From the NCBI GenBank assembly GCA_965153355.1, contig OZ231126.1, positions 43,152,001 through 43,216,000 of the forward strand: 64,000 nucleotides of DNA, written 5' to 3'. The stretch is from Flaccisagitta enflata (Eukaryota). Both the position numbers and the translations under genes were made by a program. Below, piece after piece: positions 24,112 to 42,419 of the stretch (its first letter is position 1; each line of letters begins with the position of its first letter). The notes below the pieces were generated by a model, which saw only the letters and a program-made list of their open reading frames with translations, was not told the origin of the DNA and did not search any database.

Positions 24112-24209
24112 GATGTCGCAACCCGTACGATACAAGCTGACCGCTGACCTTTTGTTCACAGATGTAAGGCAAAGCTGCGCTCGAGCTCTGACATTAGGGA
24201 AAAAAAAAC

Positions 24210-26267
24210 ATTGACCCTGACCTTCATCTTCAAGTTGAACCCTCAAGCTGCAACCTTCCTGCAACCTCGCCAAGTAGGAGTAAAGACGAGAGGGGGCACT
24301 GAGGCAATCATCCACTCTGTCCAAGCCATCCTCAACAACACCGCCATCCCTGCTAACAGCAAGTGGGTGGTGCAGATCGACTTCAAGAATGCCTTTAACA
24401 CCATCGATCGGACAACTTTCCTGGCCGAAGTTCGCGAGCGCCTGCCGGGCCTTTCAGCTTTTGCTGAGTGGTGCTACGGCGCTCACTCACGGCTTGTGTT
24501 TGGCGAAGACATTATCTACAGCGCCACCGGGGTCCAGCAAGGGGACCCACTAGGACCTCTGCTCTTTGCCATTTGCCTCCATCTCCTCATCCGCCGCATC
24601 GAAGAAGTCGCTCCCAACCTGCTCATCAACGTCTGGTACCTGGATGATGGCGTTCTTGTTGGCGATCCAAAGTCCATCTTGGCCGCCTTCGAAATCATCA
24701 AGGAGTTCTCTCCCACCCTCGGGCTGGAGCTCAACTTGGAGAAGTCCACCCTCTGGCGGTGCCTGGAGGCCCGTGCTGACCAGACCCAATCCACCATCGG
24801 CACTATCACCCAACTTGGCATCCCTGAGGTCCAATCCAATGGCTTCGTTCTCCTGGGGGCTCCAGTTGGAAGCGAAGCATTCTCTCGAGCTACGGTTGCA
24901 GAACGTGTGGAAAAGTTGGCAGATCTTTTGGCCAAGGTTTCGTCCCTTCAAAATCCTCAGATTCAGCTCTCTTTGGTCCGCTCCTGCTTTGGCCTAAGTT
25001 CGCCTACTGCCTTAGGACGTGTGATCCAGCCTCCGTCATTGATCAATTTGGTTCCTTCGACGATGCCCAGTGCCGTGCCCTCTCTGACATAGCCGGGACG
25101 CCGCTCTCAACTCAAGACCCAGCATGGATCTTGGCGTCTCTCCCTGTGTCTCTTGGGGGCCTTGGCCTGAGAAGTGCCGCCATTCACAGTCCAGCTGCCT
25201 TCGTCGCTTCCAACCTGCAAACATCCCACCTGGTGGAGAAGATAATTGCACCACACAAAACCCTCCGTGACATCACTGCTGCAACTTCCCTGCTCACCAA
25301 CAACTCAACAAACGCCACAACTCCTTTGCCCGAGGAAGGTCTAACAGCAAAGACTCCACAAAAGCTTCTCTCGCGTCGCATTGACGAATCCCGCCTCCAT
25401 CTTCTCGAAAACATGGACACTGGGGATCGATTTCCGATTGTTCTTCAATCAGTGCGTCAGCAGGGGACCGGAGCCTTTCTGAATGTCATTCCATCACCAA
25501 CTCTAGGCCTCTACATCCCTCCGCGCGAATTCACTCTGGCCACAAAATACCGTCTTGGGCTCCCGGTCTATCCAAGTCCTGGGCCCTGCCTACTCTGCCA
25601 GAAGGATTCTGACATCTATGGAGACCACGCCATCTCAGCGTGCATCGTCAGTGGTGATCGAACTCGACGCCATGACAGCCTAGTCAACGCCATCTATGAA
25701 CGATCTCAATCAGCACTACTGCGCCCCACAAAGGAGGAACGGAATCTTCTCGACGACCGTTCAAGGCCTGGCGACATCACGTTTGAACAATCGTGGCGGC
25801 TCTGCCCGGGGAAGATGAAGATTGCTTTAGACGTCACAGTTGCGTCTCCATTTCGTCAAGACTCTCACTCCCATTCCGCCGCGGACGCCACCTTCGTCTT
25901 ACGAAAAGCGCGGGAACACAAATTCCGCAAGTATGAAGACAAACTTCCTCTTGGCGTCGGCCTAGTCCCCCTCCCGGTCACCACCTTCGGTCTGTGGGAG
26001 GAAAATGCAGCCGCCAATCTCCTAGAAATTGTCAACATCCAGTCCAGCAACTTGCGTGGCGACAAAAAGAATAATAAAAGACACTTCTTTGAGCGTCTGT
26101 CCGTGACTTTACAACGTGAAAACGGCTCCATGCTGCTTGAGCGCTCTCCGCTCCCTGCACCAAATGTTGATGGTGAACTTTAAATTGTTATCTCGTCTTT
26201 CGTCTTCTGTGATTTCCATTTGTGCCTTCCTATACATTTATACCTTATCGTCTGATAAAAAAAAAAA
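24210..26267 (+). mobile_element. Non-LTR retrotransposon, RLE group (CRE-like), 5'-truncated
   Basis: RT motifs DFKNAFNTIDR, GVQQGDPLGPLLF and WYLDDG; LPVSLGGLG; CxxC...H...C knuckle followed by RHD, RPGD, ALDVTV and HKFRKY (RLE). Short 3' UTR with an A11 tail at 26257-26267; A10 at the 5' junction. Confidence 0.9.
24211..26183 (+). pseudogene. RT-RLE polyprotein broken by one frameshift near 24995
   Basis: The track's ORFs 24211-25092 and 25131-26183 join if the frame shifts at ggcct|aagttc, giving ...SCFG(L)-KFAYCLRTCDPASV...AWILASLPVSLGGLG. The N-terminus is absent. Confidence 0.85.
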
Positions 26268-26544: not shown

Positions 26545-26928
26545 CACCTTTTTTTTATAAGAACATCATTTTTGGCCAAAATTTTCAAGAGAGATAGAGA
26601 TAGTTACTTATAGAATAACTACTATGTTCTTAATTTTAGAACAATATGAAGCCTTGATGTTCCTATAAACTAGGTTCTTACAAAAGAAAGCATTGTTCCA
26701 TTGCATGGCAATCATCTGGGACTAAGAGTTCCTGGGTGATTGCAACAGTTTACAACCGAACTGACAGCAACTACACTTTTTATTTTTTATAAAAACTTAG
26801 TCTATGAAATCATCAAGCCTTGAAATCACTCAAATATAAAGAACATTGTAGTTATTTTACTAGTAGCTATCTCTATCTTTTTTGAAACTTCAGAAAGGAA
26901 ATGACGTTCTTATAAAATATAAAAAGTG
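26545..26928. mobile_element. TA-flanked MITE (CAC...ATAAGAAC family)
   Basis: Ends cacc(t)nataagaac and gttcttataaaatataaaaagtg, TA on both sides. Same family as 48569-48992. Confidence 0.65.
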
Positions 26929-28163
26929 TATGTCACGAGTCTGAAAGATCTCGATCGATAGACTCGTTTTGCTTTTGCTATTTACAGAAAAACCAGGCCG
27001 GATACACGGCAATCCAGTCGCGGACGGTTGGGTAGGAGCAGTAATACGAAAACCACTTGGAATTCAGAAATGTGACGGACGGACCGACCGACACGGCAAG
27101 GTGTAGAGTCGCGTGTCCGCGACTAAAAACGTACGTAATGGTAAAGCTGTATGTCCGGTAATGGTAATGGTAAACGTACGTACGGGTTGGGTGCTTCACA
27201 TAGCACAAGTTGTTTATTTCTTTTCGCCCTCTCTACCTGATGTGGAGTGGCCAATTTTAGGACCCTTACCATTTTTTTCTTATCAAAAATCGTTCATCTT
27301 CCGTTTTCTAGAAAATAGGTTTTGAGGGCCTAATTTGCATAATGCAGTGGGATAAAGCAATATGCTGATATTGTTTGAATTAACTTTTACAAATTTCTAT
27401 TTTTCAAAGAATTGCAATTCTGCCTTTTCATAAGCTTTTTTATAGCTTATGTTCTAATATTTTATTCTATTTTTACAAGCATTATGTTTTTCTAAAATAA
27501 ATAATTGTCCTTTTTGTAACAAAACTACACAGGATTTTGCTGAATTCTGGGAAATCTGTGAAACTTTAAGGCCAAAACAAAAACGGAAGATGAAGGAATT
27601 TTGAAAAAAGGAAAATGGTCATCTTCATGATTTTTGCTCCTCCACATTACCTGAGTAGGGTGAAGGGATACTCCCAACTTTTGCTATGCGAAGCACGCAG
27701 CCGTACGGGTCTTCTTTTACAAGAGGATCTCACTTATATTTTCATCTATCATGACTATTTCTTCGCAGGAAATTTATGGACGTATAAGTATGGTTGAGTT
27801 TAGGGGTGGGGTTGAATTTAGGGGTAGGGTTGAGTTGAGGGGTAGGGTTGAGTTGAGGGGAAGGGCTGAGTTGAGGGGAAGGGTTGAGTTGAGGGGTAGG
27901 GTTGAGTTGAGGGGTAGGGTTGAGTTGAGGGGTAGGGTTGAGTTGAGGGGTAGGGTTGAGTTGAGGGGTAGGGTTGAGTTGAGGGGTAGGGTTGAGTTGA
28001 GGGGTAGGGTTGAGTTGAGTTGAGAAGTAGGGTTGAGTTGAGGGGTAGAGTTGAGTTGAGGGGTAGGGTTGAGTTGAGGGGTAGGGTTGAGTTGAGTTGA
28101 GGGGTAGGGTTGAGTTGAGTTGAGGGGTAGGGTTGAGTTTAGTTGAGGGATATGGTTGAGTTG

Positions 28164-28396
28164 AGTATGGAATAGGACTCCTTATACCCACTTGAAACAC
28201 CCTAATATTAGAATATCCTTTATAAGAATATGAGGGACCCCTATTTAATTTAGCAATTGACGTAATACACCACAAACTTTACAGATTTCTAATGCGGGTG
28301 ATATATAAACGAATATTTCTTTGGAATTTCAGTAAACCAAGAAATTCCAAAGAAATTTCGTCTTTCTTTCAGTCCGTATGACTTCAATGTCATACT
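28164..28396 (+). repeat. 5' LTR
   Basis: AGTATG...CATACT termini; no difference from 39596-39828 seen by eye. TATATAAA at 28302-28309. Confidence 0.97.
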
Positions 28397-28410
28397 TGGA
28401 GGCAGCGAGG
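28397..28410 (+). promoter_or_regulatory. Primer binding site (imperfect match to a tRNA-Leu-type 3' end)
   Basis: TGGAGGCAGCGAGG abuts the LTR and resembles the tRNA-Leu PBS TGGTGGCAGCGGTGG. Confidence 0.7.
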
Positions 28411-28620
28411 TCTAGTAAAATCTGCGCGCCACAAGTGGCTATTCGGTCAGTTGGGCAGGAGCACCGGCGGCGTTTCTAGGAAAAGGGATTCGACGCGGGT
28501 CTCTCCCAATACTCATCGATCATCGCGAAGCGGTATCGATCTACATTTAAACAGAAACATTATCGGCGGCTCTCGCCGTCAGAGGAAAAGCCGAGGTAGG
28601 ATCTTCGACTTTTTTCCAAG

Positions 28621-30960
28621 ATGTCAACCCCAGAGGAGATAAGTACGAATGAGCTTCTTCAAGAGATATCAGACTTGTCGGCTCGAATATCACAACTGAG
28701 ACCTGGTGTTTCAGCCACCATTTGGTGTCCAAAATGCTGGAGGCCTCCATCACAGCACAAAGGTGGGTCGATAAAAGGATGTAAATCAAAAACGAAAATG
28801 CCAGTTGATCAATTCACTCGTGAATTATTACAACAGAGGAATAACCTGGTAAAATGTATACGGTCTGCAGATACTGAAGGCAGACAGTCAGAGGCGATTG
28901 ATGCGCTACAAAATACAGTAGAGAGGCAGGCCCAGACCATCGAGTCAAATCAAGAAAGGATTAGAAGTCTTCAGGCAACTAAACAAGTCATGTTACACCT
29001 GATGCGCAATTTGAATGACGCCTATCTAGCATTTATTACAGGCGGGAATGAGAATAAGATGAAAAGGATTTTCAAAGATGTTGACGACTTATTGGTATCG
29101 CTTAACGCAGAATCAAAGTCTTCGAGTGAGAATGAAGATGATGATGATGGTGATGGTGAGGATGATGATGATGGGTGGGACCACACCGGGGATCGTACAA
29201 CATGGCCCATTGATAATGCAAGTATCATTGCAGATGGCAACAGATTGTTCCCGGCAGATAACAACGACGCGGGAGCGACGGAAGCAGGAGCAATAGGCGG
29301 CGTTGGAGCAACGAAGAAGGTACATTTCTCTTTCTCACCCGTCTTGACTCATTCGTCCAATTCGTCCAAGCGAAGCGCTGAGGCATCAGGTCAAACGACT
29401 GGAATATCAGGTCAAACGACTGGAACATCAGGTCAAACGACTGGAACATCAGGTCAGGCAGGAGTAGCATCCGCTCAAAGGATAGTGAATGGAATTTTGA
29501 GACCGGCGTCATCGAACAGGTCGGTGTACGATGTACAAGCCAATACACACACAATTTCCACCCCATCTCCCAGTACACACACAATTTCCACCCCATCTCC
29601 CAACCCACCCTCAACGCCGCAATATCCAGGGTTGTTTGAAAAACCAGGGGTGGTTCTCATATTTCCTAGAGGAGGAACTTTATGTGGGGGTGAAGCTGAC
29701 GCTGATAGCGTTGTTAGGGCAGCGAAAATTGTGAACGTTGATTTCAAGGAAAACATGGATGCATTATTGTACTTGGAACAAAGACGTAAGCTAGTTGATC
29801 AGTTGTCTTGCTATTTTGGCGCTTGCCCTATGTTCACTCATTTGGGGATATTTGCCTTGAAAGCTCATGTCTTCTATAAAACGTTTCAGCCTATCTTAAA
29901 GCGCGAGGCTACGTTTTCTAGCTTTATGGCATTCGTTAAGGAATTTGAGCATCAACTCTATCCTAATTTAGACTCGATTGCGTTGGGGAGACTACACAAC
30001 CGTAAACAACAAAACAATGAGTCGGTTTCAGAGTATTTCACAGATTATGCTGATTTGATATTCATCATTGGCAGACAAGAGGACGATTACATCCAACCTT
30101 TTTTGGCAGGATTATACAATAGAACATTGGCCCACACAGTGTCAAACGCGCAATATGAGGATGGGCAAAGAACATTGAGACGGCTTGCCAATCACGCTCA
30201 ACACATAGAGGCTCAGATAAGCCTCGATAAAGCATTCTTAGAGGGCAAGGATAACAAAAATAACCATCAACGCAACGTTTCGGCTTTAACCAACGCAGGT
30301 TCTCAACAAAGTTCGTCGGCTTCACATAGAGGAAGAGGCCACAATACGCAAACAAGAGGAGCACCGGCGCCACGAGGAGGAAGCGCTCCAGCCGGTAGAG
30401 GATGGTCAAATAGCGGCGCCGGTAGAGGATGGTCAAATAGCGGCGCCGGTAGAGGATGGTCAAATAGTGGCGCCGGTAGAGGTTGGTCGAATGGAAACGG
30501 CGGAGGAGGAAACTGGAGCAAGTACGCGCCAACTAGGAGTCAGAGTTTGCCACGAGGTGGTTACGCCGGAAGTGGCGCACGTGGAGGCGCCAACGCGTCG
30601 TCGGGAGCGTCGAGCGCGCAGGCGAGAGGAACGCAATCGTCATGGAAGGCGCACGTCAACGAAATTGGGGCGTCGATCTCGTCAGCGTCAGAGTCGGGGA
30701 TGACGCCGGAAGGTATCCTCCTGGCAATGAAGATGAAAAAGATGCAATTATCTGGATGTGCCGCTTGTTTAAGTAAGACGCATGTATGGAATGGATCATA
30801 TGAGTTTTGTCGGTCATTTTGTCCGTGTTGTGGCGTGGATTTGAGGAAAGAATGTCATATCGCCATAGAGTGTGAGGACAGACCGAAAGATAAATCTGAG
30901 GCCATCATCTTGGCCAGGGACGCTGACAGAAACGGAGACAAAGACAGATTGCAAGCATGA
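28621..30960 (+). CDS. gag: Gag (779 aa)
   Basis: First ORF after the PBS. Capsid-like QQNNESVSEYFTDY segment, RGG/RGW-rich region and C-terminal Cys/His knuckles (CAACLSKTH...C; CPCC...H...C). Confidence 0.88.
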   Translation: MSTPEEISTNELLQEISDLSARISQLRPGVSATIWCPKCWRPPSQHKGGSIKGCKSKTKMPVDQFTRELLQQRNNLVKCIRSADTEGRQSEAIDALQNTVERQAQTIESNQERIRSLQATKQVMLHLMRNLNDAYLAFITGGNENKMKRIFKDVDDLLVSLNAESKSSSENEDDDDGDGEDDDDGWDHTGDRTTWPIDNASIIADGNRLFPADNNDAGATEAGAIGGVGATKKVHFSFSPVLTHSSNSSKRSAEASGQTTGISGQTTGTSGQTTGTSGQAGVASAQRIVNGILRPASSNRSVYDVQANTHTISTPSPSTHTISTPSPNPPSTPQYPGLFEKPGVVLIFPRGGTLCGGEADADSVVRAAKIVNVDFKENMDALLYLEQRRKLVDQLSCYFGACPMFTHLGIFALKAHVFYKTFQPILKREATFSSFMAFVKEFEHQLYPNLDSIALGRLHNRKQQNNESVSEYFTDYADLIFIIGRQEDDYIQPFLAGLYNRTLAHTVSNAQYEDGQRTLRRLANHAQHIEAQISLDKAFLEGKDNKNNHQRNVSALTNAGSQQSSSASHRGRGHNTQTRGAPAPRGGSAPAGRGWSNSGAGRGWSNSGAGRGWSNSGAGRGWSNGNGGGGNWSKYAPTRSQSLPRGGYAGSGARGGANASSGASSAQARGTQSSWKAHVNEIGASISSASESGMTPEGILLAMKMKKMQLSGCAACLSKTHVWNGSYEFCRSFCPCCGVDLRKECHIAIECEDRPKDKSEAIILARDADRNGDKDRLQA

Positions 30961-30966
30961 CAATTA
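30958..30966 (+). promoter_or_regulatory. Stop-codon readthrough signal TGA-CAA-TTA
   Basis: The only stop between gag and pol is followed by CAATTA, matching the CARYYA leaky-stop hexamer. Confidence 0.8.
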
Positions 30967-33900
30967 CAGAAACCATTATCACAGAAAGAGGACGAGAAAA
31001 GTATTGGTGATAAATTACAATGTCTTTCAATATCAAAATCTCCGAATGAGTATGAGTTGAACATAGATTCAGTGGGACGTGTTTTAAATGGGCAAGAAAA
31101 GAAAGGCGACAATAGGAGTGGAAAAGAGGGTGACAGAAAAGGTGACAGTGAAAGTGACAGTGAGAGTGACAGTGAAAGTGACGGAGAAAATGACAAACAG
31201 TCATTGCATTGTGCTAACGTGAATAAAAAGGAATTTGAGGAAGAAGAGGAGGAAAATGGATGTTCAACGGGTTTTATGAAAGGAAGTAAATTCTATGTGG
31301 CATGTATGGTATCACCATGGGAGGAAGAGAGTGAAAATGGGAGTGATAATGGTCAAGATGGCGCGGTGAAAGGCGAATTTTTCATTGACACTGGAGCAGA
31401 GTGTAGTGTCATTGCCTCAGCTTTAGTAAAAGACATCAGAAAAAGGAAGGGTCCAGGAGTACAACTACTAGGTTTTACGGGCCAAGTAGGGGCGGAGGTG
31501 ACAGATATGGTGGATGTTACACTACATTTTTACCCACAAAGTGTGAGGTGTTCTTTCTATGTGTGCGATGTGGAGACATCAATTATAGGTTCTGACCTGC
31601 TTCGCGATAGGAGCCTGGGCCTCAACTTGAGCACGATGGATGAATTGTTGTATGTCAAAGATGAACGGATTTTGACATCGAGGTCGTTGGATGAAGCAGT
31701 TGATAGCCTGGTGGTAAGAAAGAGGGAGTGGGAAAGTCGTAGTTTAATGGAAAGGAATTGGCCAAAGGTTGAAAGAACTTACTGGATGTCAAACAGACGG
31801 ACTGTCACTCTTGATCCAACATCAATCACGATGGTCGAGTGCAAAATAGAGCCAAATTTTAGGACTGACAGTAAATTTTCATTTCTTTCGTTCTATGATG
31901 AGGAAATACATTCAGTCTACATACCCTCAGTCACGTATGAGAGAGGTACTGTAAATTTCATGATTCCAGTCACTAATCTTACCGGCGAGGAAATGACGAT
32001 TAAGGCAGGTTGGAGGATAGGTGAGATTGTGAAGCACGGTATCACCAAAGACGAACAAGAGACGCGTAGCTTGAAGATATTTCAAGTTGATGTCTGCAAA
32101 ATAGATGTGGTGATGAAAGGAACGAATGAGAAAAGCGAAAGTCAGACAGTTGAACGCGCGACAGTAAAGGAAAATAGTGAATACGACAATGTCAACACAA
32201 ACAACAAAAGGACAATCGTCAAAAACAACACTGGGTCCAAGAACAAAATAGTCGAGAACAACACTAACAACAAAAGAACAATCATCAAAAACAAAACAGA
32301 CGACAATGAAAAGTTAGTAGACAAACACATCAATGTCATCGCAAATGGTAACAACAAAATCGTCAATGTCATCGCAGATAGTAACAACAAAATCGGCAAT
32401 GTCATCAGTGATAATGACAACGGCATCGTCAATGTCATCGCTAATGATAAAAGGAACAAAACAGATGAAAGTTACGCAAAAAGAATAGTGTGTGAAGTGC
32501 TTGATATTCAGCCTCGCAAAAGTGTGATAGAAGGCTCACTTAAAGGTGCGGACAAAGTGAGAAAGGACAGAGAAAAAGCAGACACAAAAAGCAGCAAGCG
32601 CGAAAGAGGGGCGAGTGTTATTACGTCCATCGGAGAATCATATGATGAGAGAAAAAGGACTCGGACAGAGAGTGAGACGAATTTGGAACGGAGACAGAAG
32701 GCCTCGAAAAACGAAGTAGTAAAGAGAGAACGAAAATGGACTCAGGGCGCTGAGGAAGACAAACGCGAAAGGCTGGAAAGAGAAATGATAGGATTGATAT
32801 GCGGAGTGACGGACGAAGTCAAAAGTGGACGGACGGACGAAGGAGAGTTGTCAGCTGTCTGTAGAGACGGAGTAGGGTGCAACGATGTACGTGTGGAGGA
32901 GGTTGTGGTTGAAAAAGCTGCAGCGTCACACATACACAGCGAAGCGGCAGCAGGAGCTGGAAAGAAAAGCAGCTGCGGGAAGCAGCCAGGCGAAAAACGG
33001 AACGGCCTGCATGACGTCACAGGCCCCGTTCTTCTCTCTGATATAGTGAACAAAGGCAGACTTAGTAATGATCTGTTGAAGAGGTGTCAGGACACAGGAA
33101 TTTACTGTGATTTAGAGGCGAAGCAACAAAGTCCTAATCTCCATCTGTTGGGGGTCAGAGCAAACTTTGACCTTGAAAAGGACAAAAGAGCAAAATCAGA
33201 ATTTTGGCCATCAGATGAAATATTTCTAGCAAATTTTGATTTTTCAGGAGTAGAGGAGCCATATTTGAGCAAGTTGAAGGAGCTTTTAGTATGTTTCAAG
33301 GATATTTTTTACAATGTTGACAGGAAAGATCAGTTCAGAGCTGGCATTCAGAATATCCCATTGGTGCATATTGAGGTTCAACCAGGAGTGGTGCCAGTCA
33401 AGGATAAGCAGAGAAGATGTCCAGACAGTAAGAGGAAGTATTTGAAAAAGCATATTGAAGACCTTATTGACATGGGTGTTATTAAGGAAGTGGATAATTC
33501 CAGAGAATCTGCTTCTATCTATGCATCCAATGCTTTTATCATTTTGGAAGAAAGATGGTATAGTGGTGAGAACAAAATTAGGTACAAAAGTCGAATGGTA
33601 GTAGACCAAAAATCTCTCAACAAATCATTGAAAAAGAGTTCATTCCCTTTGCCAAATTGTGAGGCGTTCAGAAGAGAGCTGTCACAATATAAAGTGTTCT
33701 CAAGCTTTGACTTCGTAGAATTTTTTCATCAGGTCAAAACAGATGAGCAGACACAACAGCTATTTGGTATCTATGCTTTAGGCAAGGTTTACAAGTCTCT
33801 CAGATTATTGATGGGAAATATACAATCGGCCAACTTGGGGCAATTTACCTCATCAAAATGCTATGAAAATTGCCCTAGATCATATCCTTTTCAGGATGAT

Positions 33901-36900
33901 GTTTCATGCTGTTCAATGACCAAGGAAGAACATATAGAGAAGGATTTGCCTGACTTTTTGGCCACAACAAGTTACTACAATCTGCTTGTGAACCCGAAGA
34001 AGTGTATTTTCTTCAGAGATGAGGCCAGAATTCTAGGTCACTTAGTGGGAGAAGAGAGGCTGTCATTATCATCAGAAAAGATTGATAAGATCAAGAAATT
34101 GGCTTTCCCAGAAACAAAAGCTAAATTGAATGCAATGCTTGCATTTTTTGTCTGGTTTGACAGAATGGCAGTCAGACTGTCAGAATTGGCAGCACCTCTG
34201 AGAGAGCTAAACAAACCGGGTGTTCGTTTCAGGCCGTCAGCGATTCATCATAAGGCATTGCAGGACATAAAGGGGCATTTATTAGACCCAGAATGCTGTG
34301 TGTTAAGGACACCTAGTGCTGATGTGGAGGACACGATCTTTTGTTTTTGTGACGCCTCATCTAGCAGCCTGAGTGGGATACTGACACAGATGATGTTACC
34401 ACTGAAGCACAAGCAATCAGGAGAGCAGGGAAGAAAGGAATTGCATTTGGTGGGAGTATGGAGCTCATGCATACCCGAGAACTGGCGTTGTTACCCAATT
34501 TGGTTGAAGGAACTGGTCGCCCTTTGGCAAATGACGCATAAGTATTTTTTCCTACTTTCTGGCAGGCAATTTTTTGTTGTGAGTGACAGCGAGACTTGCA
34601 GGGATTGGGCAAGTATCGATCGAGTGCCAATGGATTTGGCAAGAAAAATCCTTTCTTTGCAACGGTTCGATTTCAAGGTCATTCATGTGGATGGGAAATT
34701 GAACATGGCAGATATCTTTAGCAGGCAGGAAAGGACATTTGACCCTCAAGGAAATAAGATATCACCAGTAGGGACCTATCCAAGGTTCATGGAAGGCCGT
34801 TTGATAAATGGAGATGGAAATCCAATAAGTTGGAAAAAACTCTTCACAGCACCAAAAAGCAAAAGAATGGAAGATTTCTTCGTTCGGAATAGAAAGCAGA
34901 AATTGGCGAAGGCAGTTTCAGTCGAGAAAAAAGAAAAGCCAATTCATGACGACTATGATTCCCGCAAAGACGCGGTTGACAGCCAAATAGAAGGGACAAT
35001 GGAGGTGGTGACAGACAATGACAAATCGACAAAAACAACACGTGAGTGTGTAAGAGAATTCACCTATGATAGAGTGATGGATTCCTTGAGAGCGGGTGAT
35101 GAAATTGATGACGTCAGTGGTGAGGGATTCGTCACCGACTTGCATGAGGGCGTCGTTGAGGACGATGGTGACGTCATTGAGGGCGACGACGACGTCGACG
35201 ACGACGTCGCATCGAAGGAAGCTTGCCGTCGAGGTGTCAAGGAGGAAGAGGAGGAGGAGAAGAAGGAGCTTGGGAGGATGAACATCTGTTCGTTCGGATT
35301 GACGGATGAGGAGATAGGAGAAGGATGGAATGATGCGGATGACGAAGAAGTGGAGGACATCTTTAGAGACGTGACCCTGCCCGTGTATGACGAAGACAAT
35401 CTGGAAAAGGCAAAGGAAATGCAAGAAGATGAAACAATTAGGAAGTGTGCTCAGTATTTGAGGGGCGAGGAGGAAATTCCCCGAAAAATAAATGCTTTGA
35501 GCCTGCCTAAGGATATACAGACGTTCTTACGACATAAGCTATGCTTTAGGCTGAATGAGCAGGGCATATTATTTCGCCTATGGACACATAAAAACGGTTC
35601 AATTGATCCTCTTTTGGTGGTTGGTGATTCACAAATGGACAGACTGATTGCTAAAACCCACGAATTTGATGTAGACTGCCCATCTGGTCTCTCACACATC
35701 GGTCAAAGAAAGACATTTACGGCAATCGCAAAAAAGTGGTACGCGTTCAGACTGAGATTCAAGGTGAACACATACATCTCACGGTGCGCAAGTTGCGCTT
35801 TGAATAACCACATAACAAACAGAGCAAGAAAAGAGGATGATGGAGAACAAATTGCATGTCAAAGCGGAGAATTGGTAGTTATGGACTTTGCGGGTCCATA
35901 TACAATGTTTAGAACAGCGTCAGGCTTGCCAAAATATGTCTTAATATTTTGTGACAGTTTCAGCCGTTACGCTTTTGGTACGCCAACCAATGGTACTAAT
36001 GATGACTATGTACTGGAGGGCGTAATGGAAATGAGAAAAGCGTGGAATGGATTGCCTAAATCTATAGTATGCGATAACGCATTACTATCAAAGCACAGTG
36101 CTACCAGGAAGTTTTTAATGGATAGTGGTGTAACTATTACCCATGGAATGGCGAACATTAGCAGGTGCCAAACAAAGGCCGAACGACTAATATCAACGAT
36201 TAGTCGTTTAATAATGAAGTATCACTCATCTAATCCAAAAACACCATTCTCAAAGTTGGTAAATGAATCTATCATTTGTTATAATAACTCGGTGCATAGT
36301 GGGCTAGGCCCTATGACCGAGGAAGGGGCGATTTCGCCACGGGAATTACACTTTTCACCTACCTTAAAGGCGCCGTTGATGAACATTGCGTCGAAAGAAG
36401 ATGGAAAAGGAAGCAAATCAGCAAAGGAGACAATTTCTTTGGCGAAAAGGGCGGCGGAAGAGTCTCTTCTGTACAACGTACAGTCGTTTCTGAAGAAAAA
36501 AGATCACAGTTCGCCAACTGATTATGGCCGTAGGCTTAAAAGTGGAGATCTTTGCTTGCTAAAAAGGACTTCATTCGCAAAAGGCATTCAGAAAAAGTTG
36601 GCATTCAAATTACAAAAAAATGCCTTTGAGGTCATGGACCGCGTCGGTACCAATACTTTTAGATGCAAAAGTATCTTGACAGATGATATCTGTATTCTGC
36701 CGGGTGACTTACTACTAATCACCAGAAACCAAACGAAGGAGGACTTACTAAGATTGTGTGAACGCATGGAAGAGATGGCCACAAAGAACGAAGCCTCGAA
36801 TTCGCCACCAATGACAAGAAGAAGGGCGCGTGGTGCCCAATTATCGCCGTCGATTGACGCCAATTTCGTCCTAAATGCGGGGCTGACGACGAAGAGCCAC

Positions 36901-36939
36901 TACGGTGGAATCGGCCTCGATGCGTTGGAATGGATTTGA
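30961..36939 (+). CDS. pol: Pol (protease, dUTPase-like fold, RT, RNase H, integrase), in frame with gag
   Basis: IDTGA (GAC 31387); RT FDFVEFFHQV and FQDD (33889-33900); RNase H CDAS (34351), KELVA, VSDS and ADIFSR; integrase H-H-CxxC with D 35884, D 36073 and E 36181 (D-x35-E). The frame is open from the codon after the gag stop. Confidence 0.95.
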   Translation, partial: QLQKPLSQKEDEKSIGDKLQCLSISKSPNEYELNIDSVGRVLNGQEKKGDNRSGKEGDRKGDSESDSESDSESDGENDKQSLHCANVNKKEFEEEEEENGCSTGFMKGSKFYVACMVSPWEEESENGSDNGQDGAVKGEFFIDTGAECSVIASALVKDIRKRKGPGVQLLGFTGQVGAEVTDMVDVTLHFYPQSVRCSFYVCDVETSIIGSDLLRDRSLGLNLSTMDELLYVKDERILTSRSLDEAVDSLVVRKREWESRSLMERNWPKVERTYWMSNRRTVTLDPTSITMVECKIEPNFRTDSKFSFLSFYDEEIHSVYIPSVTYERGTVNFMIPVTNLTGEEMTIKAGWRIGEIVKHGITKDEQETRSLKIFQVDVCKIDVVMKGTNEKSESQTVERATVKENSEYDNVNTNNKRTIVKNNTGSKNKIVENNTNNKRTIIKNKTDDNEKLVDKHINVIANGNNKIVNVIADSNNKIGNVISDNDNGIVNVIANDKRNKTDESYAKRIVCEVLDIQPRKSVIEGSLKGADKVRKDREKADTKSSKRERGASVITSIGESYDERKRTRTESETNLERRQKASKNEVVKRERKWTQGAEEDKRERLEREMIGLICGVTDEVKSGRTDEGELSAVCRDGVGCNDVRVEEVVVEKAAASHIHSEAAAGAGKKSSCGKQPGEKRNGLHDVTGPVLLSDIVNKGRLSNDLLKRCQDTGIYCDLEAKQQSPNLHLLGVRANFDLEKDKRAKSEFWPSDEIFLANFDFSGVEEPYLSKLKELLVCFKDIFYNVDRKDQFRAGIQNIPLVHIEVQPGVVPVKDKQRRCPDSKRKYLKKHIEDLIDMGVIKEVDNSRESASIYASNAFIILEERWYSGENKIRYKSRMVVDQKSLNKSLKKSSFPLPNCEAFRRELSQYKVFSSFDFVEFFHQVKTDEQTQQLFGIYALGKVYKSLRLLMGNIQSANLGQFTSSKCYENCPRSYPFQDDVSCCSMTKEEHIEKDLPDFLATTSYYNLLVNPKKCIFFRDEARILGHLVGEERLSLSSEKIDKIKKLAFPETKAKLNAMLAFFVWFDRMAVRLSELAAPLRELNKPGVRFRPSAIHHKALQDIKGHLLDPECCVLRTPSADVEDTIFCFCDASSSSLSGILTQMMLPLKHKQSGEQGRKELHLVGVWSSCIPENWRCYPIWLKELVALWQMTHKYFFLLSGRQFFVVSDSETCRDWASIDRVPMDLARKILSLQRFDFKVIHVDGKLNMADIFSRQERTFDPQGNKISPVGTYPRFMEGRLINGDGNPISWKKLFTAPKSKRMEDFFVRNRKQKLAKAVSVEKKEKPIHDDYDSRKDAVDSQIEGTMEVVTDNDKSTKTTRECVREFTYDRVMDSLRAGDEIDDVSGEGFVTDLHEGVVEDDGDVIEGDDDVDDDVASKEACRRGVKEEEEEEKKELGRMNICSFGLTDEEIGEGWNDADDEEVEDIFRDVTLPVYDEDNLEKAKEMQEDETIRKCAQYLRGEEEIPRKINALSLPKDIQTFLRHKLCFRLNEQGILFRLWTHKNGSIDPLLVVGDSQMDRLIAKTHEFDVDCPSGLSHIGQRKTFTAIAKKWYAFRLRFKVNTYISRCASCALNNHITNRARKEDDGEQIACQSGELVVMDFAGPYTMFRTASGLPKYVLIFCDSFSRYAFGTPTNGTNDDYVLEGVMEMRKAWNGLPKSIVCDNALLSKHSATRKFLMDSGVTITHGMANISRCQTKAERLISTISRLIMKYHSSNPKTPFSKLVNESIICYNNSVHSGLGPMTEEGAISPRELHFSPTLKAPLMNIASKEDGKGSKSAKETISLAKRAAEESLLYNVQSFLKKKDHSSPTDYGRRLKSGDLCLLKRTSFAKGIQKKLAFKLQKNAFEVMDRVGTNTFRCKSILTDDICILPGDLLLITRNQTKEDLLRLCERMEEMATKNEASNSPPMTRRRARGAQLSPSIDANFVLNAGLTTKSHYGGIGLDALEWI

Positions 36940-36946
36940 GACAGTA

Positions 36947-36982
36947 TTTTTTTTTTTTTTTGGTTTTTGTATTTTTTTTATT
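36947..36982 (-). terminator. Antisense poly(A) signal followed by an A15 tract
   Basis: Minus-strand AATAAA at 36982-36977, a 15-nt spacer, then A15 (plus-strand T at 36947-36961), about 110 nt downstream of the 143-aa ORF stop. Confidence 0.6.
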
Positions 36983-37092
36983 AGCAAAATTTTGGATAAA
37001 ATCAAGAAATGAAAGAAAGAAATAATTAGAAAAATTTTGAATTAAAAACCCTTAAGGGCAAAGTGGGGAAGAAAATCTAAGTGGGGAAAAAT

Positions 37093-37524
37093 TTAAACCC
37101 ACAGCGAACGGGCATTATTCTCATCGCAATGGCGGGGGGCCGGTCCTCGCATCTCGATGGTTTGGACTCGGGCTCTGGCACTGTCGGTGGCGTTCCTAAA
37201 CGGAACGCCGCTGACAGCTGGCGTGGCCATGGGGCTGGTGGAGGCGTCTTGGGCCTGATGAGGCCTCAGAAGGTCCAACGCAGCCCTTGGGACAGACTGC
37301 AGGGTGGCCAAGAAGCGGTCCACCGCTGCCAGTTTGCGCCTGAGGGCTACGAGGACCCCTGAGACCAGCATCAGGGCACCGATGACCCCTCCGACCGAGC
37401 CCCATGTCACCGCCTCAGAGTCCGGTTGGACGGACGCAACCGTTGGACTGGGAAGCGAGGTTGATGATTCTTCGTAAAAGTAATCATCAACCGAGCTTCC
37501 CGTGTAAAGGGTAAAGTTTGCCAT
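37093..37524 (-). CDS. Antisense small single-pass membrane protein (143 aa)
   Basis: caaaATGG start context; visibly GC-rich against AT-rich flanks. N-F-T sequon at residue 3, S/T/P stalk, TM at about residues 39-61 with two GxxxG motifs, followed by RRK. Confidence 0.75.
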   Translation of the reverse strand: MANFTLYTGSSVDDYFYEESSTSLPSPTVASVQPDSEAVTWGSVGGVIGALMLVSGVLVALRRKLAAVDRFLATLQSVPRAALDLLRPHQAQDASTSPMATPAVSGVPFRNATDSARARVQTIEMRGPAPRHCDENNARSLWV

Positions 37525-38576
37525 TTTGATTTTGAATAATGACTTTTGGAAACAAATTTAAATTAAATTCCCTCTAAATGTAAAAAGAAAGAAGAAACCG
37601 CCGTTCGCTGTTAGAAGAAAGAAGAGAAATGAAGTAAAAGAAAATGAATAAAAAGAAGATGTAATATAAAGCCGCTTCTTTTGAGACAGAAATACGAGCC
37701 TGTAAAAAGAGAAAATAGAACAATCAGTGTTTAATATTAGAGACGCTCTAATGATCAATGAATGTGAAATGTGAACGATGAATGAATGTGATAAATGAAC
37801 CTGGCCAGGTAAACGAACGAATGTTGACAGCTGATTGATGAATAGTGAACGAAGTGTGAACGGGGGAGTGAATGCGCGGTAGTAAATGAATCAAAGAAAC
37901 AAATGAACAATCAGCTCGAAGTTGATCAGAGAGGGCGTCTAATTTTAGAGTGATGGAAATAAGTGGCTAATGAAATTACGGAAGAGAAAAAGTGAAGAAA
38001 CGAAAAAGAATTTGCTAACCCCAGGGGGGCAAATTAAAGTAAGGTCTCGACAATGAATGTGAGCCTTTCGAAAACCGGTATTATTTAGGATAGTATGCCC
38101 CCGGCGCTATCTAGGGACGTGCCCGATTATCAATTCTTTAGTCTGAAGGATAAAGAATTTTCACTAAGCCCTTACCAGATGGTATTTGGGAGTGATTAAC
38201 AATGCGCAGACAGTACTGTAGTCGTATTTTTTTTTATGGAATTCCTATATTTTTTTTACGACATGAAGTCGATGATGGTTATATTTTTTTCTCGATTGAT
38301 GATTTAGTTCCCAAATGGAAAATCTTGAGAATAAAAACGAATTGAAAACGGCAGGAGTGAGGGAAAAATAATGAGTGACCAATGAAGTAAATTTGGCTAA
38401 ATCAGCTGCCAGCTTTGGACTTTGATCAAAGAAATGGAAAAAAGGGTCGGTGTGAAATTAAATTTGAAATTATTGATTTCTATCCTTTTCTCTCATGCTT
38501 AATTTCCCATTGTTTCACTACTCTGTATGGACTTTACCTTTTTTTTCCCGACTGTCGATTGACTGAGCATGCTGAT

Positions 38577-38889
38577 TTACACGTTTTGTATGGCATACTG
38601 ACTGTTTCGTCTTAGTGGTGTTGGAGTATTGGGAGCATTGCCTTGATTTGCTAGGATTTGCGTTGTTTGTAACTTTTGTTGAAAAATTTTGAATATGGTG
38701 AGAATAATATCGAGCAACACCAGGGCAATGGTGCCAAATTGAAGATATTCGACATCGTCAGTATTCTGTAATACTTTCTTTTTATACTCAGTTTTGAGAT
38801 ACTTCTCTGATACTGGTAAACATCGAGAAGTAGTGGTTCTTCCGGTAGCCGTACGATACACAATCAATTGACAAGCATCCCCGTCTTTC
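38577..38889 (-). CDS. Antisense spliced type I membrane protein (157 aa), exon 2
   Basis: Follows the acceptor ...ATTGATTTTAG|G; 313 nt, in frame with exon 1. Encodes KDGDACQLIVYR..., TM FGTIALVLLDIILTIF, and a tail ending AIQNV*. Confidence 0.8.
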
Positions 38890-39056
38890 CTAAAATCAAT
38901 GATTGACAGGCATGTTAACGATTAGAAATAGAAGTATTTGAATTCAATGCAAGCCTGAACTAATTAATATGTTACCATGGCGAAGAAGGTAATAATAACT
39001 TGAACTGACTTTTGCATTAATCTTGTGTTCAATAATTTTCTCCCCCCCCCACTTAC

Positions 39057-39217
39057 CTGTAGCCCACGCTTTCCAAATACCCCTCAAATTTTTGAAAACA
39101 CTTATTCGAGGGAACTGGATCTTTAACGTAATCCTCAAGTGTTTGCTCATTTGATTCAGAGGCCATTCCCATGGTGAAGAGAAGAGATGCCAACGCGAGA
39201 AAGAGATATTGGTTCAT
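39057..39217 (-). CDS. Antisense spliced type I membrane protein (157 aa), exon 1
   Basis: GCCATCATG start; signal-peptide-like MNQYLFLALASLLFTMGMAS; 161 nt ending CAG|GTAAGT. The 167-nt intron is 39056-38890. Confidence 0.8.
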
Positions 39218-39587
39218 GATGGCTTGTCGCAGTAGTCAAGCGGAGAAGTGATTAGGGAATAAAAGGAATTTTGGTAACCTAACAAATGCCGAGTCTTTTA
39301 TAGTTTCTTTGGATTAGAAGGGTTGTTGATTGATAATTTGAATATTTAGAATTCTCCTTTTCTGTCTTAGTTACTATCCAAACCTATAAGTCGTGACTTA
39401 TAAAAGTTAAAACGTGACCGTTATTTTCCGTTCATTCAAAGATTGTTATTGTTACGCAAACGCCCGCATTTCTGAGGTTTTTCATTTTTAGGTGGGTAAA
39501 AGGAGATCGACTTTGTTTTTAAATTCCGGGAATTTGAAAAAAAGAAAAAAAAAACCTAGTTCACACTAATGGTTTTTTTTTGTCAAC

Positions 39588-39595
39588 AGGGGGGA
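39588..39595 (+). promoter_or_regulatory. Polypurine tract
   Basis: AGGGGGGA immediately before the 3' LTR, preceded by a T-run. Confidence 0.8.
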
Positions 39596-39828
39596 AGTAT
39601 GGAATAGGACTCCTTATACCCACTTGAAACACCCTAATATTAGAATATCCTTTATAAGAATATGAGGGACCCCTATTTAATTTAGCAATTGACGTAATAC
39701 ACCACAAACTTTACAGATTTCTAATGCGGGTGATATATAAACGAATATTTCTTTGGAATTTCAGTAAACCAAGAAATTCCAAAGAAATTTCGTCTTTCTT
39801 TCAGTCCGTATGACTTCAATGTCATACT
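39596..39828 (+). repeat. 3' LTR
   Basis: Copy of 28164-28396. Confidence 0.97.
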
Positions 39829-41278
39829 GTTGAGTTGAGGGGTAGGGTTGAGTTAGGGGTAGGGATGAATTCAAGGGAAGGGTTGAGTTCAGGAGCTGGA
39901 TTGAGTTTTGGGGTAGGGGTGGGTGTAGGGGTAGGATGAGTTAAGGGGTAAGGATGAGTTTAGGGGCAGGGGTGATGTTAGGGGCAGGGGTGATTCTAGG
40001 GTAGGGGTGAGTTTGTGGGTAGGGGTGAGTTTAGGGGTAGGGGTGAGTAAAGGGGTAGGGGTGTGTTTATGGGTAGGGGTGTGTTTATGGGTAGGGGTGA
40101 TTTTAGGGGTAGGGGTGAGTTTAGGGGTAGGGGTGAGTTTAGGGGTAGGAGTGAATTTAGGGGTAGGGGTGAGTGTAGGGGTAGGGGTGAGTGTAGGGGC
40201 AGCGGTGAGTGTAGGGGCAGGGGTGAGTGTAGGGGTGAGTTTAGGTTGTGTCAAATAAAAAAACACTAAAGTGAGGTCCTCTTGTAAAAGTTTGCCTAAA
40301 TACGTCATGGTAAAGGTGTATGTCTGGCCGGCTCCTTCACGTAGACCCCCAAATTTATTCCAAATTCCTCAACCTGGACTCGAAGTTCCCCCCCCCCCCC
40401 CCCCCCCGGCTCAGTCCTGCCCCTTGTTCGTTTCAACTAAGGTTGCCTGTAGAATCCAGAGCGCCTGAGCCGCCTCATTCAGGGCTCGTAATCAATAGCC
40501 CCCCGGCTCCCTCCTATCGTCTCTGAGATTTGAATTTCATTGCTTTCTAGAAACAAAGTCATGTGTGAGTAGGCAAGGGCAGTGATAAAAAAAAGACTAC
40601 ACTTTTTATTTTAAGAAGAACCATGATTTTAAGAACATCAAGCCTTGAAATAGCTCAAAAATTAAGAACGTCAGTTTTTTTACTAGTAAATTTTTAAAAA
40701 AGTAACTAAAGCATATGAGCAGGAGCTCAGCACCGGAAAAAAAAAACACCAACATGCTTATAAAGCTATCAGAGACCCACCGACCGACATAGGGTGCACA
40801 CGCCCTAAGAAAAAATATCTATATTGATGGCTCGCCCTCCTAATCGCGTTGCGTGCTTTGCGACTCTACACCCCGCTTTGTCATCCGTCCTAGTCGGTGT
40901 GTCCGTCCGTCCATCACACTTGATACTTTTTTTATGTTTTTGCAGTTTTTGGCATCAACGCTCTAGCCTAAGATTGTGCTGAAGATAGTGACCTCAAACG
41001 TGGCCCCTGCCCAACCGCACGCAACTGGGATAGCCGTGTATCCGGTTTTGTCAGAGAGAGATAAGGTGAGTCAAGACAAGTTGTGTGTTCCCACTGTTTT
41101 AGTCGCGTGCTACGCGACTCTACACCCCGCTTTGTCCATCCATCGGTCGGTTGGTTGGTCGATCATATTTTACTTTTTTACGAGTTTTATTTTTAGTCGC
41201 GTGCACGTGACTCAACACCTTGGTTGGTCGGTTGGTCTGTCCGTCAGTTCGTCAGTAATACTTTAAAGTTTGAGAGAA

Positions 41279-41469
41279 TCAGAGTAAGAGAGAGAGTCAG
41301 AGTAAGAGAGAGAGTCAGAGTAAGAGAGAGAGTCAGAGTAAGAGAGAGAGAGTCAGAGTAAGAGAGAGAGTCAGAGTAAGAGAGAGAGAGTCAGAGTAAG
41401 AGAGAGAGTCAGAGTAAGAAGAGAGAGAGTCAGAGTAAGAGAGAGAGTCAGAGTAAGAGAGAGAGTCAG
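41279..41469. repeat. Minisatellite (AGAGTAAGAGAGAGAGTC)n, 18-20 bp units
   Basis: About ten visible units. Confidence 0.92.
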
Positions 41470-42419
41470 GGAGAAAATACATAAAAAACTCTTGGAATGA
41501 TTGTAAAATCTGCCTGTTTGTCAGAACAAGGCCGGATACACGGCTACCCCAGTCGCGTGCGGGTGGGCATGGGCCGTAATTGAGGTCACCAGATCATTTG
41601 GGCAGGAGCAGTGAGGCTAAAAATCCCAAAAACCCAAAAAAAGTAAAGTGTGACGGACCGACAGACAGACCGACGGATGGACGGACAGACCGACAAAGCG
41701 AGGTGTAGAGTCGCGTAGGACGCGACTAAAAACTTATGCAAATGTTCATAAAATGAGTTTGAGACCTGAAGTATCTTTCTTTTTCAAAGAATTGAACTTG
41801 AACTACAAAAAAAAAAAAAAGTCCGGATACACGGCAATCCAGTCGCGGACAGTTGGGCAGGAGCAGTAATGCGAAACCATTCGGAATTCAAAAATGTGAC
41901 CTACCGACTGACCGACACGGCAAGGTGTAAAGTCGCGTGTCCGCGACAAAAAATATATTCAATGTGCGGCAGCTACCGGAAGCTACCGGAATCCGCACCT
42001 TTGATCATCAACATTCTCAAATCCTCATTTCCAAAATTCCACAGAAGACAATTTCTCGTTCCCCCTCGGCCGCTGTCGCCATCCTGGATCCCATCGCCTC
42101 CGGCATCATCACAGACATGACGGCGTGTCTCGCCGAGGAAAAATCGGCGTTGGCCAGCGTTGTTGAAGAATCCGCGACAAGGTTTACGTCAATTATTAGA
42201 CTACAGACGACGCGTTACTCGTTTTTGACCCTCGATGGTGAAGTCTTAAGATAGCTCTTCATCGGTGACACTCCTGCCAGCGTCACAACGGGAACTGTAT
42301 CACCAAATGCGGTTGAAGCTTTCGTGGTGTCCAAAATGGGATGGATCCACATCCTCGCCGGTTTTACTTCAAATCATGCGCAAGGCCAGGTTTGCCCATA
42401 CATGCATGTGAACGCACAC

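Follow-up and report, generated by a model that had tools for sequence, protein, structure and literature searches.

A conserved antisense reading frame for a predicted small membrane protein between pol and the 3' LTR of a Ty3/gypsy-like retrotransposon of Flaccisagitta enflata

How retroelements that lack an env gene move between cells and hosts is a live question, which was sharpened in 2025 by a report on soma-to-oocyte passage in Drosophila. This report describes sORF2, a short transmembrane (TM) protein with features of the FAST fusogens, in env-less elements of the Drosophila MDG1 group, where it enables follicle cells to pass capsids on to the oocyte (Voichek et al. 2025, bioRxiv 10.1101/2025.03.14.642691). 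In the same report, all 105 insect sORF2 candidates are in forward orientation, and in Lepidoptera, sORF2 follows pol in 7 of 22 consensus sequences. The FAST proteins themselves present an ecto/TM/endo layout and, in various combinations, fatty acylation, a hydrophobic patch and polybasic and proline-rich motifs. Of these, acylation is described as critical for fusion (PMC12945298). A second group to be considered comprises the antisense open reading frames (ORFs) found between pol and the 3' long terminal repeat (LTR), termed aORF-3R, which are known from maize Grande (gene23), rice RIRE2, Silene Retand, Phaseolus PvRetro13 and Botrytis Boty (Vicient & Casacuberta 2020, PMC7264820). Here, we analyzed a locus that resembles both groups in part, namely an ORF of 143 amino acids (aa), termed ORF143, that lies in reverse orientation in an env-less Ty3/gypsy-like LTR retrotransposon. 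The element is found in a 64,000-nucleotide (nt) stretch of Flaccisagitta enflata DNA (GenBank assembly GCA_965153355.1, contig OZ231126.1, positions 43,152,001 to 43,216,000 of the forward strand), to which we refer as the window.

A first-pass annotation of the window, made from the letters of the sequence, had singled out ORF143 as an antisense protein of FAST-like topology and had proposed that homologs be searched for. The ORF itself was confirmed by the ORF list, on the minus strand and with an ATG start. It sits between the pol stop (36939) and the 3' LTR (39596), antisense to gag and pol, both of which are on the plus strand, and overlaps neither of them. The search for relatives was productive, as 25 cluster representatives were found and conservation is present. 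A word-indexed search yielded 17 relatives among 294 candidates, with identities of 51–94%, and 15 of these 17, with lengths of 134–144 aa, align over at least 97% of the query. A profile search against 1.84 billion representatives yielded 11 matches, eight of which were new (P0021–P0028, about 29–54% identity). All 11 are 75–147 aa long, none being longer or fused to another protein, and the full-length relatives altogether span 131–147 aa. The relatives come only from environmental records. When 18 members were compared with Pfam at E ≤ 1, only sub-threshold matches of the TM type were obtained (TM_ErbB1 in 4 of the 18, best E 0.047), while a PDB profile search returned three matches (E 0.18–1.3), all on TM helices, and hence no relative. 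With at least 25 cluster representatives and no relative in Pfam or PDB, ORF143 and its relatives form an unannotated protein family.

The way in which the family is conserved is more informative than its size. Nearly all relatives start within a few residues of a common Met and end at a common aromatic-aliphatic pair, and every insertion or deletion is in frame. The conserved spots are the TM core, a juxtamembrane R-R/K-x-L-x-x-V-D/E motif, a Pro-containing patch, the motif RN[AL]TD..IEMR and one Cys. Within these, little or no variation is seen in the TM core, R62, the VD or VE that follows R62, P98 and N111/D114, and the linkers between them are variable and carry the in-frame indels. We further inspected ten clusters, nine of ORF143 relatives and one of relatives of a neighboring gene, gene A, discussed below (P0020). 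The ORF143 clusters contain many distinct, near-identical full-length variants (31, 15, 9, 8 and 7 members). In the cluster of P0007, with 31 members, all 15 listed members are 139–140 aa long, and in that of P0015 all nine members are 135–137 aa long. As start, stop and motifs are kept and all indels are in frame, the alignments identify the minus-strand frame as coding sequence under selection, and we consider ORF143 very probably a real, conserved gene.

A bare ORF of this length would not have sufficed for such a statement. Stops are few in GC-rich sequence, and ORF143 could then be a chance frame in a GC-rich island with no gene behind it. When the region between pol and the 3' LTR (36940–39595) was shuffled with its dinucleotides preserved, an ATG-initiated ORF of at least 143 aa appeared in 32 of 1000 shuffles, while shuffles of the GC-rich island itself (37060–37560) gave one in only 14 of 2000. 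As a bare ORF, ORF143 is thus only moderately unusual. What takes it beyond chance is that it is conserved in relatives and that its frame is kept through all indels. With 25 related cluster representatives retaining frame, length and motifs, the chance explanation is effectively refuted and we give it next to no weight.

The element that carries ORF143 is a complete, young, apparently autonomous env-less Ty3/gypsy-like LTR retrotransposon, of which there is one copy in the window. Its two LTRs are 100% identical, with the identity stopping exactly at each end. The element has the composition expected of Ty3/gypsy elements (Metaviridae), that is, LTRs, a primer-binding site, a polypurine tract, and gag followed by a pol in which Pfam domains appear in the gypsy order of protease, reverse transcriptase (RT), RNase H and integrase. 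RVT_1 (2.1e-10) and RT_RNaseH (2.9e-6) are above the Pfam cut-off, while rve, Integrase_H2C2 and RVP are below it. The region from the pol stop to the 3' LTR is 2.66 kb long (36940–39595). The carrier is considered to be without env because no plus-strand frame of at least 100 aa is found downstream of the pol stop. There are also no terminal repeats in this region that would suggest a nested second element, the inverted-repeat pairs being A/T runs only. GTTG is found on either outer flank of the element and is a possible 4-bp target duplication, a weak indication, since the surrounding 18-nt satellite contains GTTG as well. In a search of the RT-RNase H part, which gave 18 matches among 2983 candidates and covered proteins of 1037–3303 aa only, the five nearest relatives, all environmental, showed 37–50% identity, and the best named protein about 25%. 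As this part is only distantly matched, the carrier belongs to a very divergent lineage.

Close copies of this arrangement exist in nature. Four metatranscriptomic runs (X1–X4, all from one marine study) contain small shares of the region, 0.07–0.13, and contigs of three of them (X1, X3 and X4; unstranded, from libraries that may contain DNA) were aligned to it. At 90–99% identity, these contigs cover parts of ORF143, of the spacer and of gene A, as well as the junction between the internal part and the 3' LTR (39416–39792) and a portion of pol (35540–35780). Based on these matches, close copies with a like arrangement exist and occur in RNA libraries. A joint between 37023 and 39642 in one X4 contig, which could have indicated a variant without the antisense genes, is regarded as spurious, as one of its sides has only 22 letters. 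For this copy and its close relatives, and for these only, ORF143 is carried by the young gypsy-like element and moves with it.

The predicted protein has a simple build. The features named by the first-pass annotation are all present in the translation, namely a sequon at N3 (NFT), DDYFYEE, G42xxxG46 and G45xxxG49 in the TM segment, RRK at residues 62–64, LAAVDRFLATLQSV at 65–78 and a C-terminal LWV. We asked how far such features hold across the family, counting over 26 family sequences or over the 22 full-length ones. There is no signal peptide, the N-terminus being non-hydrophobic family-wide. In the 22 full-length members, the part that precedes the TM segment is 36–45 aa long, has a net charge of -4 to -7 and contains 24–40% S/T/P. 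An N-x-S/T sequon is found in this ectodomain, at residues 3–10, in 24 of the 26 sequences, the exceptions being P0017, which is frameshift-like, and P0027, which has no ectodomain. As the position of the sequon shifts between subgroups (N3 versus N7/N9 versus N5–10) while the sequon itself stays, N-terminal glycosylation seems to be retained by selection. Each protein has one TM segment, with Kyte-Doolittle (KD) averages of 1.84–2.75 for the best 19 residues in the full-length members, and G45 is invariant in the family alignment (A2). All 22 full-length members have two to three K/R within eight residues after the TM segment. This is followed by an 18-residue amphipathic helix with a hydrophobic moment (muH) of 0.47–0.63 in the full-length members. 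An AlphaFold2 model based on the family alignment places a helix at residues 41–86, running on from the TM segment, a short helix at 114–120, and disorder elsewhere, including most of the tail that ends in LWV. A conserved Cys is located about 65–70 residues past the TM segment, and the C-terminus is an aromatic plus an aliphatic residue in 22 of 26 sequences. A homodimer prediction for residues 30–95 scored 0.02, was run without controls, and speaks neither way.

The orientation of single-pass proteins in the membrane can be predicted by the positive-inside rule. As the N-terminal flank is acidic and basic residues follow the TM segment, ORF143 is consistently predicted to be a reverse signal-anchor (type III) glycoprotein, with its N-terminus outside and its C-terminus in the cytosol (N-out/C-in), in line with the topology proposed earlier. 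Cytosolic C-terminal hydrophobic pairs are known as PDZ-binding or COPII/endoplasmic reticulum (ER) export signals, and the aromatic-aliphatic pair of ORF143 resembles such a signal.

This layout was what had led to the comparison with FAST fusogens. The comparison stands as far as the general layout goes, as ORF143 has the size and the single TM segment of FAST and sORF2 proteins (about 63–200 aa), a predicted N-out/C-in topology with no cleavable signal peptide, and a cytosolic amphipathic helix. As specific evidence it does not hold, since all these traits are generic to small bitopic proteins. The two to three basic residues after the TM segment, for example, are no more than the positive-inside rule predicts and are not specific to FAST proteins. 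One could nonetheless suppose that ORF143 alone acts as a FAST/sORF2-type fusogen, with fusion or transient pores letting capsids pass between cells without an envelope. Its short ectodomain, juxtamembrane basic residues, amphipathic helix, proline-rich tail patch and TM glycines would all be in agreement with such a role, as would the lack of env in the carrier and the precedent in LTR retrotransposons, including the post-pol sORF2 of Lepidoptera. The details of the family argue otherwise. Gly2, the site of N-terminal myristoylation, was reported as missing by the first-pass annotation and is indeed found in 0 of the 22 full-length members; the sole Gly2 is in P0027. There is also no conserved membrane-proximal Cys, and thus no acylation of the kind called critical for fusion (PMC12945298). 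The ectodomain has no hydrophobic patch in any of the 22 full-length members (best 9-residue KD 0.44–1.68) and is instead acidic and retains its sequon, with only a short conserved aromatic-acidic motif (muH 0.30–0.73). The basic cluster is short, an aromatic residue directly after the TM segment is found in 0 of 22, and neither Pfam nor PDB offers a sequence relation.

The comparison with sORF2 leads to the same outcome. Like the Drosophila and other insect sORF2, ORF143 is a small, single-TM accessory protein, predicted to be N-out/C-in, of an env-less Ty3/gypsy-type element, in which basic residues adjoin the membrane and an amphipathic motif lies in the cytosolic part, and some of the insect cases also lie downstream of pol. 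The statement in the first-pass annotation that such Drosophila ORFs had been reported, and not in antisense, was correct (bioRxiv 10.1101/2025.03.14.642691). The sORF2 proteins have 63–107 aa, are in forward orientation in 105 of 105 candidates and are expressed from the element's own transcript. Most of them present an MGxxxS/T myristoylation motif, a Tyr that follows the TM segment, and an amphipathic motif in an ectodomain of about 30 aa. ORF143, in contrast, is antisense with candidate signals of its own, lacks an acylation site, and has an acidic sequon-bearing ectodomain and a long conserved tail, with no sequence relation to sORF2. With the reovirus and rotavirus FAST proteins (p10, p13, p14, p15 and NSP1-1; about 100–200 aa), it shares the ecto/TM/endo order, the TM glycines and the basic and proline-rich endodomain motifs, whereas the hydrophobic patch and fatty acylation that FAST proteins combine are both lacking. 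ORF143 is also no class I–III Env fusion glycoprotein, as its ectodomain of about 40 aa is disordered and has no match in Pfam or PDB. On these sequence features, we do not assign ORF143 to the FAST or sORF2 proteins, and we do not think that it is a stand-alone FAST-type fusogen, a role that we regard as quite improbable.

ORF143 is not the only antisense gene in this region. Adjacent to it, a second minus-strand gene, gene A, is predicted to consist of two exons with an in-frame junction and to encode a product of about 157 aa. As the frame of exon 2 is free of Met, this exon requires an upstream exon, and exon 1 supplies an ATG and a signal-peptide-like N-terminus. Exon 2 has relatives of its own, P0018 (96%), P0019 (98%) and P0020 (61%), and the similarity to P0020 starts at the predicted acceptor. 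Neither the gene A exons nor P0020 have a Pfam match, and exon 2 gave no usable look-alike in the ESM Atlas. Two ways of relating the genes to each other were rejected. Paralogy of ORF143 and gene A received an hhalign probability of 0.3%. Splicing of the gene A signal-peptide exon onto ORF143 would have to use the lone upstream AG, which gives the wrong frame, and the relatives of ORF143 start at their common Met.

Taken together, our preferred interpretation, which we hold to be probable by a modest measure, is that ORF143 is a genuine accessory gene, placed in reverse orientation between pol and the 3' LTR, that acts at membranes on behalf of the element together with gene A. ORF143 would have a minus-strand transcript of its own, for which the candidate signals are a TATA-like motif (about 140 nt upstream), a favorable Kozak context (A at -3, G at +4) and an AATAAA (110 nt downstream). 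The protein would be inserted as type III, with its short, acidic, S/T/P-rich, N-glycosylated N-terminus facing the lumen or the outside, and with its Gly-rich TM helix continuing into the cytosolic amphipathic helix. The tail would be cytosolic and mostly disordered, carrying the S/T-P proline-rich patch, the RN[AL]TD..IEMR motif, the one Cys and the C-terminal aromatic-aliphatic pair. ORF143 and gene A would thereby form a small membrane-protein cassette at the usual place of env, both proteins acting at host membranes for the element, as a substitute for env or as accessories. They may, for instance, steer particles or the surface of the expressing cell to cell contacts, or alter surface or trafficking properties. 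The antisense placement would further allow the intron of gene A to survive retrotransposition, since an antisense intron is not removed from the sense genomic RNA by splicing. A stronger version, in which the two genes, a glycoprotein without signal peptide and a spliced protein with one, constitute a minimal envelope or cell-to-cell transfer system, seems to us distinctly unlikely; if true, it would provide sORF2/FAST proteins with their first functional analogue that is encoded in antisense, and with the first one beyond the insects.

It could also be that the antisense RNA is what matters, serving self-regulation of the element through dsRNA or siRNA, with the ORF being incidental. LTR elements are known to have antisense promoters and to produce non-coding antisense RNAs, and the transcripts of aORF-3R have been suggested to act as dsRNA (PMC7264820). 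ORF143, however, overlaps neither gag nor pol. Its conservation is at the level of the protein, with common start and stop, in-frame indels, motifs kept down to about 30% identity, and a sequon that persists despite turnover of its position. We therefore consider a purely RNA-based function very improbable.

The main rival of the accessory-gene interpretation is passenger capture, in which the element picked up a small bitopic glycoprotein gene of the host, possibly by retroposition of its mRNA, and this gene rides on the element without serving it, and the divergent relatives are orthologues or paralogues in related plankton. The first-pass annotation had taken the higher GC content of ORF143 as a sign of capture. 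The excess is real, with a GC of 0.604 as compared to 0.474 in gag, 0.431 in pol and 0.24–0.37 in the immediate flanks, and with a GC at third codon positions (GC3) of 0.66 as compared to 0.43–0.45 in gag and pol, and it is far above gene A as well; capture itself remains at the level of the plausible. In addition, ORF143 is intronless, and its AATAAA is followed 15 nt on by a run of 15 A, as in processed retrocopies. AATAAA, the A15 run and the GC3 excess are together the best, albeit weak, hint of capture as a retroposed mRNA. The run might be a relic of a retroposed polyadenylated mRNA, a weak sign given that A/T runs are frequent in the region. In a language-model comparison, the ESM Atlas look-alikes at scores of 0.79–0.81 are small bitopic proteins, namely opalin, TMEM154, SMAGP and stannin as well as gpUL132. 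These scores, which lie below a level where chance matches are common, make them leads only, and the top score for ORF143, 0.86, is likewise under the useful level. The cellular type III bitopic glycoproteins among them (opalin, SMAGP, TMEM154 and stannin) resemble ORF143 in that they lack a signal peptide and have a short N-terminal ectodomain that may be glycosylated, a single TM segment and a disordered cytosolic tail, with no detectable sequence relation.

Several findings, on the other hand, speak against a mere passenger. The carrier has identical LTRs and intact gag and pol, and its flanks around ORF143 recur at 90–99% in independent contigs, such that the gene transposes with the element. 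The clusters of near-identical, distinct full-length variants described above, together with frameshifted forms, are the pattern of a multicopy element family, whereas transduced aORFs are present in one or few copies, according to Vicient & Casacuberta 2020 (PMC7264820). Moreover, a second, unrelated antisense membrane-protein gene adjoins ORF143 and is conserved too. We therefore rate passenger capture as unlikely, albeit as the foremost of the alternatives.

The accessory-gene interpretation nonetheless has some drawbacks that need to be considered, as the following observations weigh against it. The GC3 excess of ORF143 over gag and pol fits a foreign origin. Most contigs of the relatives are 0.55–1.7 kb long, longer ones being those of P0081 (4.8 kb) and P0023 (3.1 kb), and the divergent relatives could be host genes rather than genes borne by a retrotransposon. 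Some relatives look like decayed or partial copies, as judged from their sequences: P0017, whose first approximately 40 residues are unlike the rest of the family and frameshift-like; P0022 (75 aa), which diverges after the start of the TM segment and is also frameshift-like; and the short P0005 (108 aa) and P0027 (92 aa), the latter starting at the TM segment. The protein database, moreover, contains called ORFs only, and broken copies are hence under-counted. In the one short stretch of ORF143 under a variant contig, seven differences amount to three residue changes and two silent ones, with no clear signal of purifying selection. The AlphaFold2 model has a mean pLDDT of 52, that is, low confidence. 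Finally, no strand-specific or spliced RNA was seen in the metatranscriptome contigs, which are unstranded, and the sole contig that spans the gene A intron is unspliced, as expected if it stems from sense genomic RNA or from DNA. In a polyA RNA run (X5), of which about 6% was used, 0 reads fell on the region, and this does not amount to a test. As to related loci with their genomic context, none was found in JGI metagenome contigs (with the ORF143 family or the pol C-terminus as query), nor in IMG/VR or GTDB genome contigs (with the ORF143 family as query).

Other known systems place the locus further. Like ORF143, the aORF-3R genes are located between pol and the 3' LTR, run antisense and are found in Ty3/gypsy carriers; they are conserved within families, and promoters of their own have been proposed (PMC7264820). 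They differ in that they come from plants and fungi, and in that the characterized ones are nuclear or equipped with an SMC-like domain rather than membrane proteins. In the present carrier, in contrast to those elements, the antisense genes are two in number; each is predicted to encode a bitopic membrane protein, and one has a predicted intron. HIV-1 ASP is also an antisense-encoded membrane protein of a retroelement, which reaches the cell surface and has a conserved proline motif (PMC10186651). ASP differs from ORF143 in its length of about 190 aa, in having two predicted TM segments rather than one, in its overlap with env, which has no counterpart in ORF143, and in being driven by the 3' LTR. 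The ORF3s of the bdelloid rotifer elements Vesta4 and Vesta6c resemble ORF143 in being short, TM-containing post-pol ORFs that may take the place of a complete env (Rodriguez et al. 2017, PMC5408684). They are unlike it in being sense, 210–230 aa long, and endowed with two hydrophobic regions or a weak likeness to gp41. While antisense ORFs between pol and the 3' LTR were thus already known, the antisense pair of bitopic membrane-protein genes appears to be new: a full-text literature search, outside of which lay most subscription journals and the supplements, returned no description of an LTR retrotransposon with a small antisense gene for a bitopic membrane protein, let alone with two of them.

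The locus presents a small, conserved, predicted membrane protein in a gypsy-like lineage from marine samples that is very divergent and unrelated to the insect elements, in an architecture other than that of sORF2: antisense, with candidate signals of its own, and paired with a predicted spliced gene. If the cassette serves the element, it would widen the repertoire of retroelement accessory genes, and antisense placement would be a way of carrying intron-containing genes through reverse transcription. If ORF143 is only a passenger, it would be a clean case in which a membrane-protein gene of the host is spread by a retrotransposon. The positions of all features discussed are given in Table 1.

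Table 1. Features of the retrotransposon and of its antisense genes, in window coordinates (position 1 is the first letter of the window).
Feature	Position	Strand	Description
5' LTR	28164–28396	+	233 bp, termini AGTATG...CATACT; direct repeat of the 3' LTR
Primer-binding site	28397–28412	+	Begins with TGG; read directly after the 5' LTR
gag	28621–30960	+	ORF of 779 aa, stop TGA at 30958–30960; Retrotrans_gag E 6.6e-4 (below the Pfam cut-off)
pol	30961–36939	+	Protease, RT, RNase H, integrase; first ATG at 31276; stop-to-stop frame, same frame as gag, directly after the gag TGA
A15 run	36947–36961	-	Uninterrupted, DNA-encoded; 15 nt past AATAAA, 7 nt from the pol stop
AATAAA	36977–36982	-	Candidate signal, 110 nt downstream of the ORF143 stop; sole minus-strand AATAAA in 36900–39620
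ORF143 coding sequence	37093–37524	-	143 aa plus stop; ATG ORF, conserved
ORF143 transmembrane segment	37342–37404	-	Gly-rich, codons 41–61; best 19-residue Kyte-Doolittle window 2.26
TATA-like motif of ORF143	37663–37670	-	TTTATATT, candidate signal from the motif scan, about 140 nt before the ATG
Gene A exon 2	38577–38889	-	104-codon frame with part of the ectodomain, TM segment, tail and stop
Gene A predicted intron	38890–39056	-	167 nt, GTAAGT donor...TTTTAG acceptor; in-frame junction
Gene A exon 1	39057–39217	-	ATG at 39217, signal-peptide-like hydrophobic N-terminus and about 35 more residues; Kozak context read
TATAAA of gene A	39297–39302	-	Motif scan; lies 80 nt before the start codon of gene A
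Polypurine tract	39587–39595	+	Abuts the 3' LTR
3' LTR	39596–39828	+	233 bp; direct repeat of the 5' LTR

Some further observations concern gag and pol of the carrier. At their junction (30958–30966), the two genes are in the same frame and parted only by TGA, which is followed by CAA TTA. We take this TGA CAA TTA to match the stop-CAR-YYA read-through context of tobamoviruses. Based on the shared frame and this context, Gag-Pol is probably made by stop-codon read-through and not by frameshifting. Both genes contain in-frame tandem repeats. Those of gag (30391–30510) have units of 27/54 nt and code for repeats rich in Gly, Arg, Trp and Ser, while those of pol (32193–32445) have units of 33 nt and lie between protease and RT. 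At 1887 aa from its first ATG, pol is unusually long, which we attribute to in-frame repeats.

As for the surroundings, scans of the window with Rfam and for tRNA genes gave 0 matches. The element is flanked by an array of 18-nt repeats, at 27788–28166 on the left and 39829–40245 on the right, with the consensus GTAGGGTTGAGTTGAGGG on the left and TGAGTTTAGGGGTAGGGG on the right. The two are about 77–80% alike, and their units contain TTTAGGG-like words; the array may be either a subtelomeric satellite or a preferred target. Further to the left, a fragment of a non-LTR retrotransposon is found on the plus strand at 24148–26183, with RVT_1 at 24148–25092 (E 4.5e-18) and a frame shift between two overlapping open frames, and it is GC-rich locally (0.53–0.55). 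Apart from this fragment, the other ORFs examined in the window yielded low-complexity frames only. Lastly, three short direct repeats (64–91 nt, 73–91% alike) connect 26778–27140 with 40603–41964, on both sides of the element and outside the satellite, about 13.8–14.8 kb apart, and they could be parts of an older repeat that received the satellite and the element.

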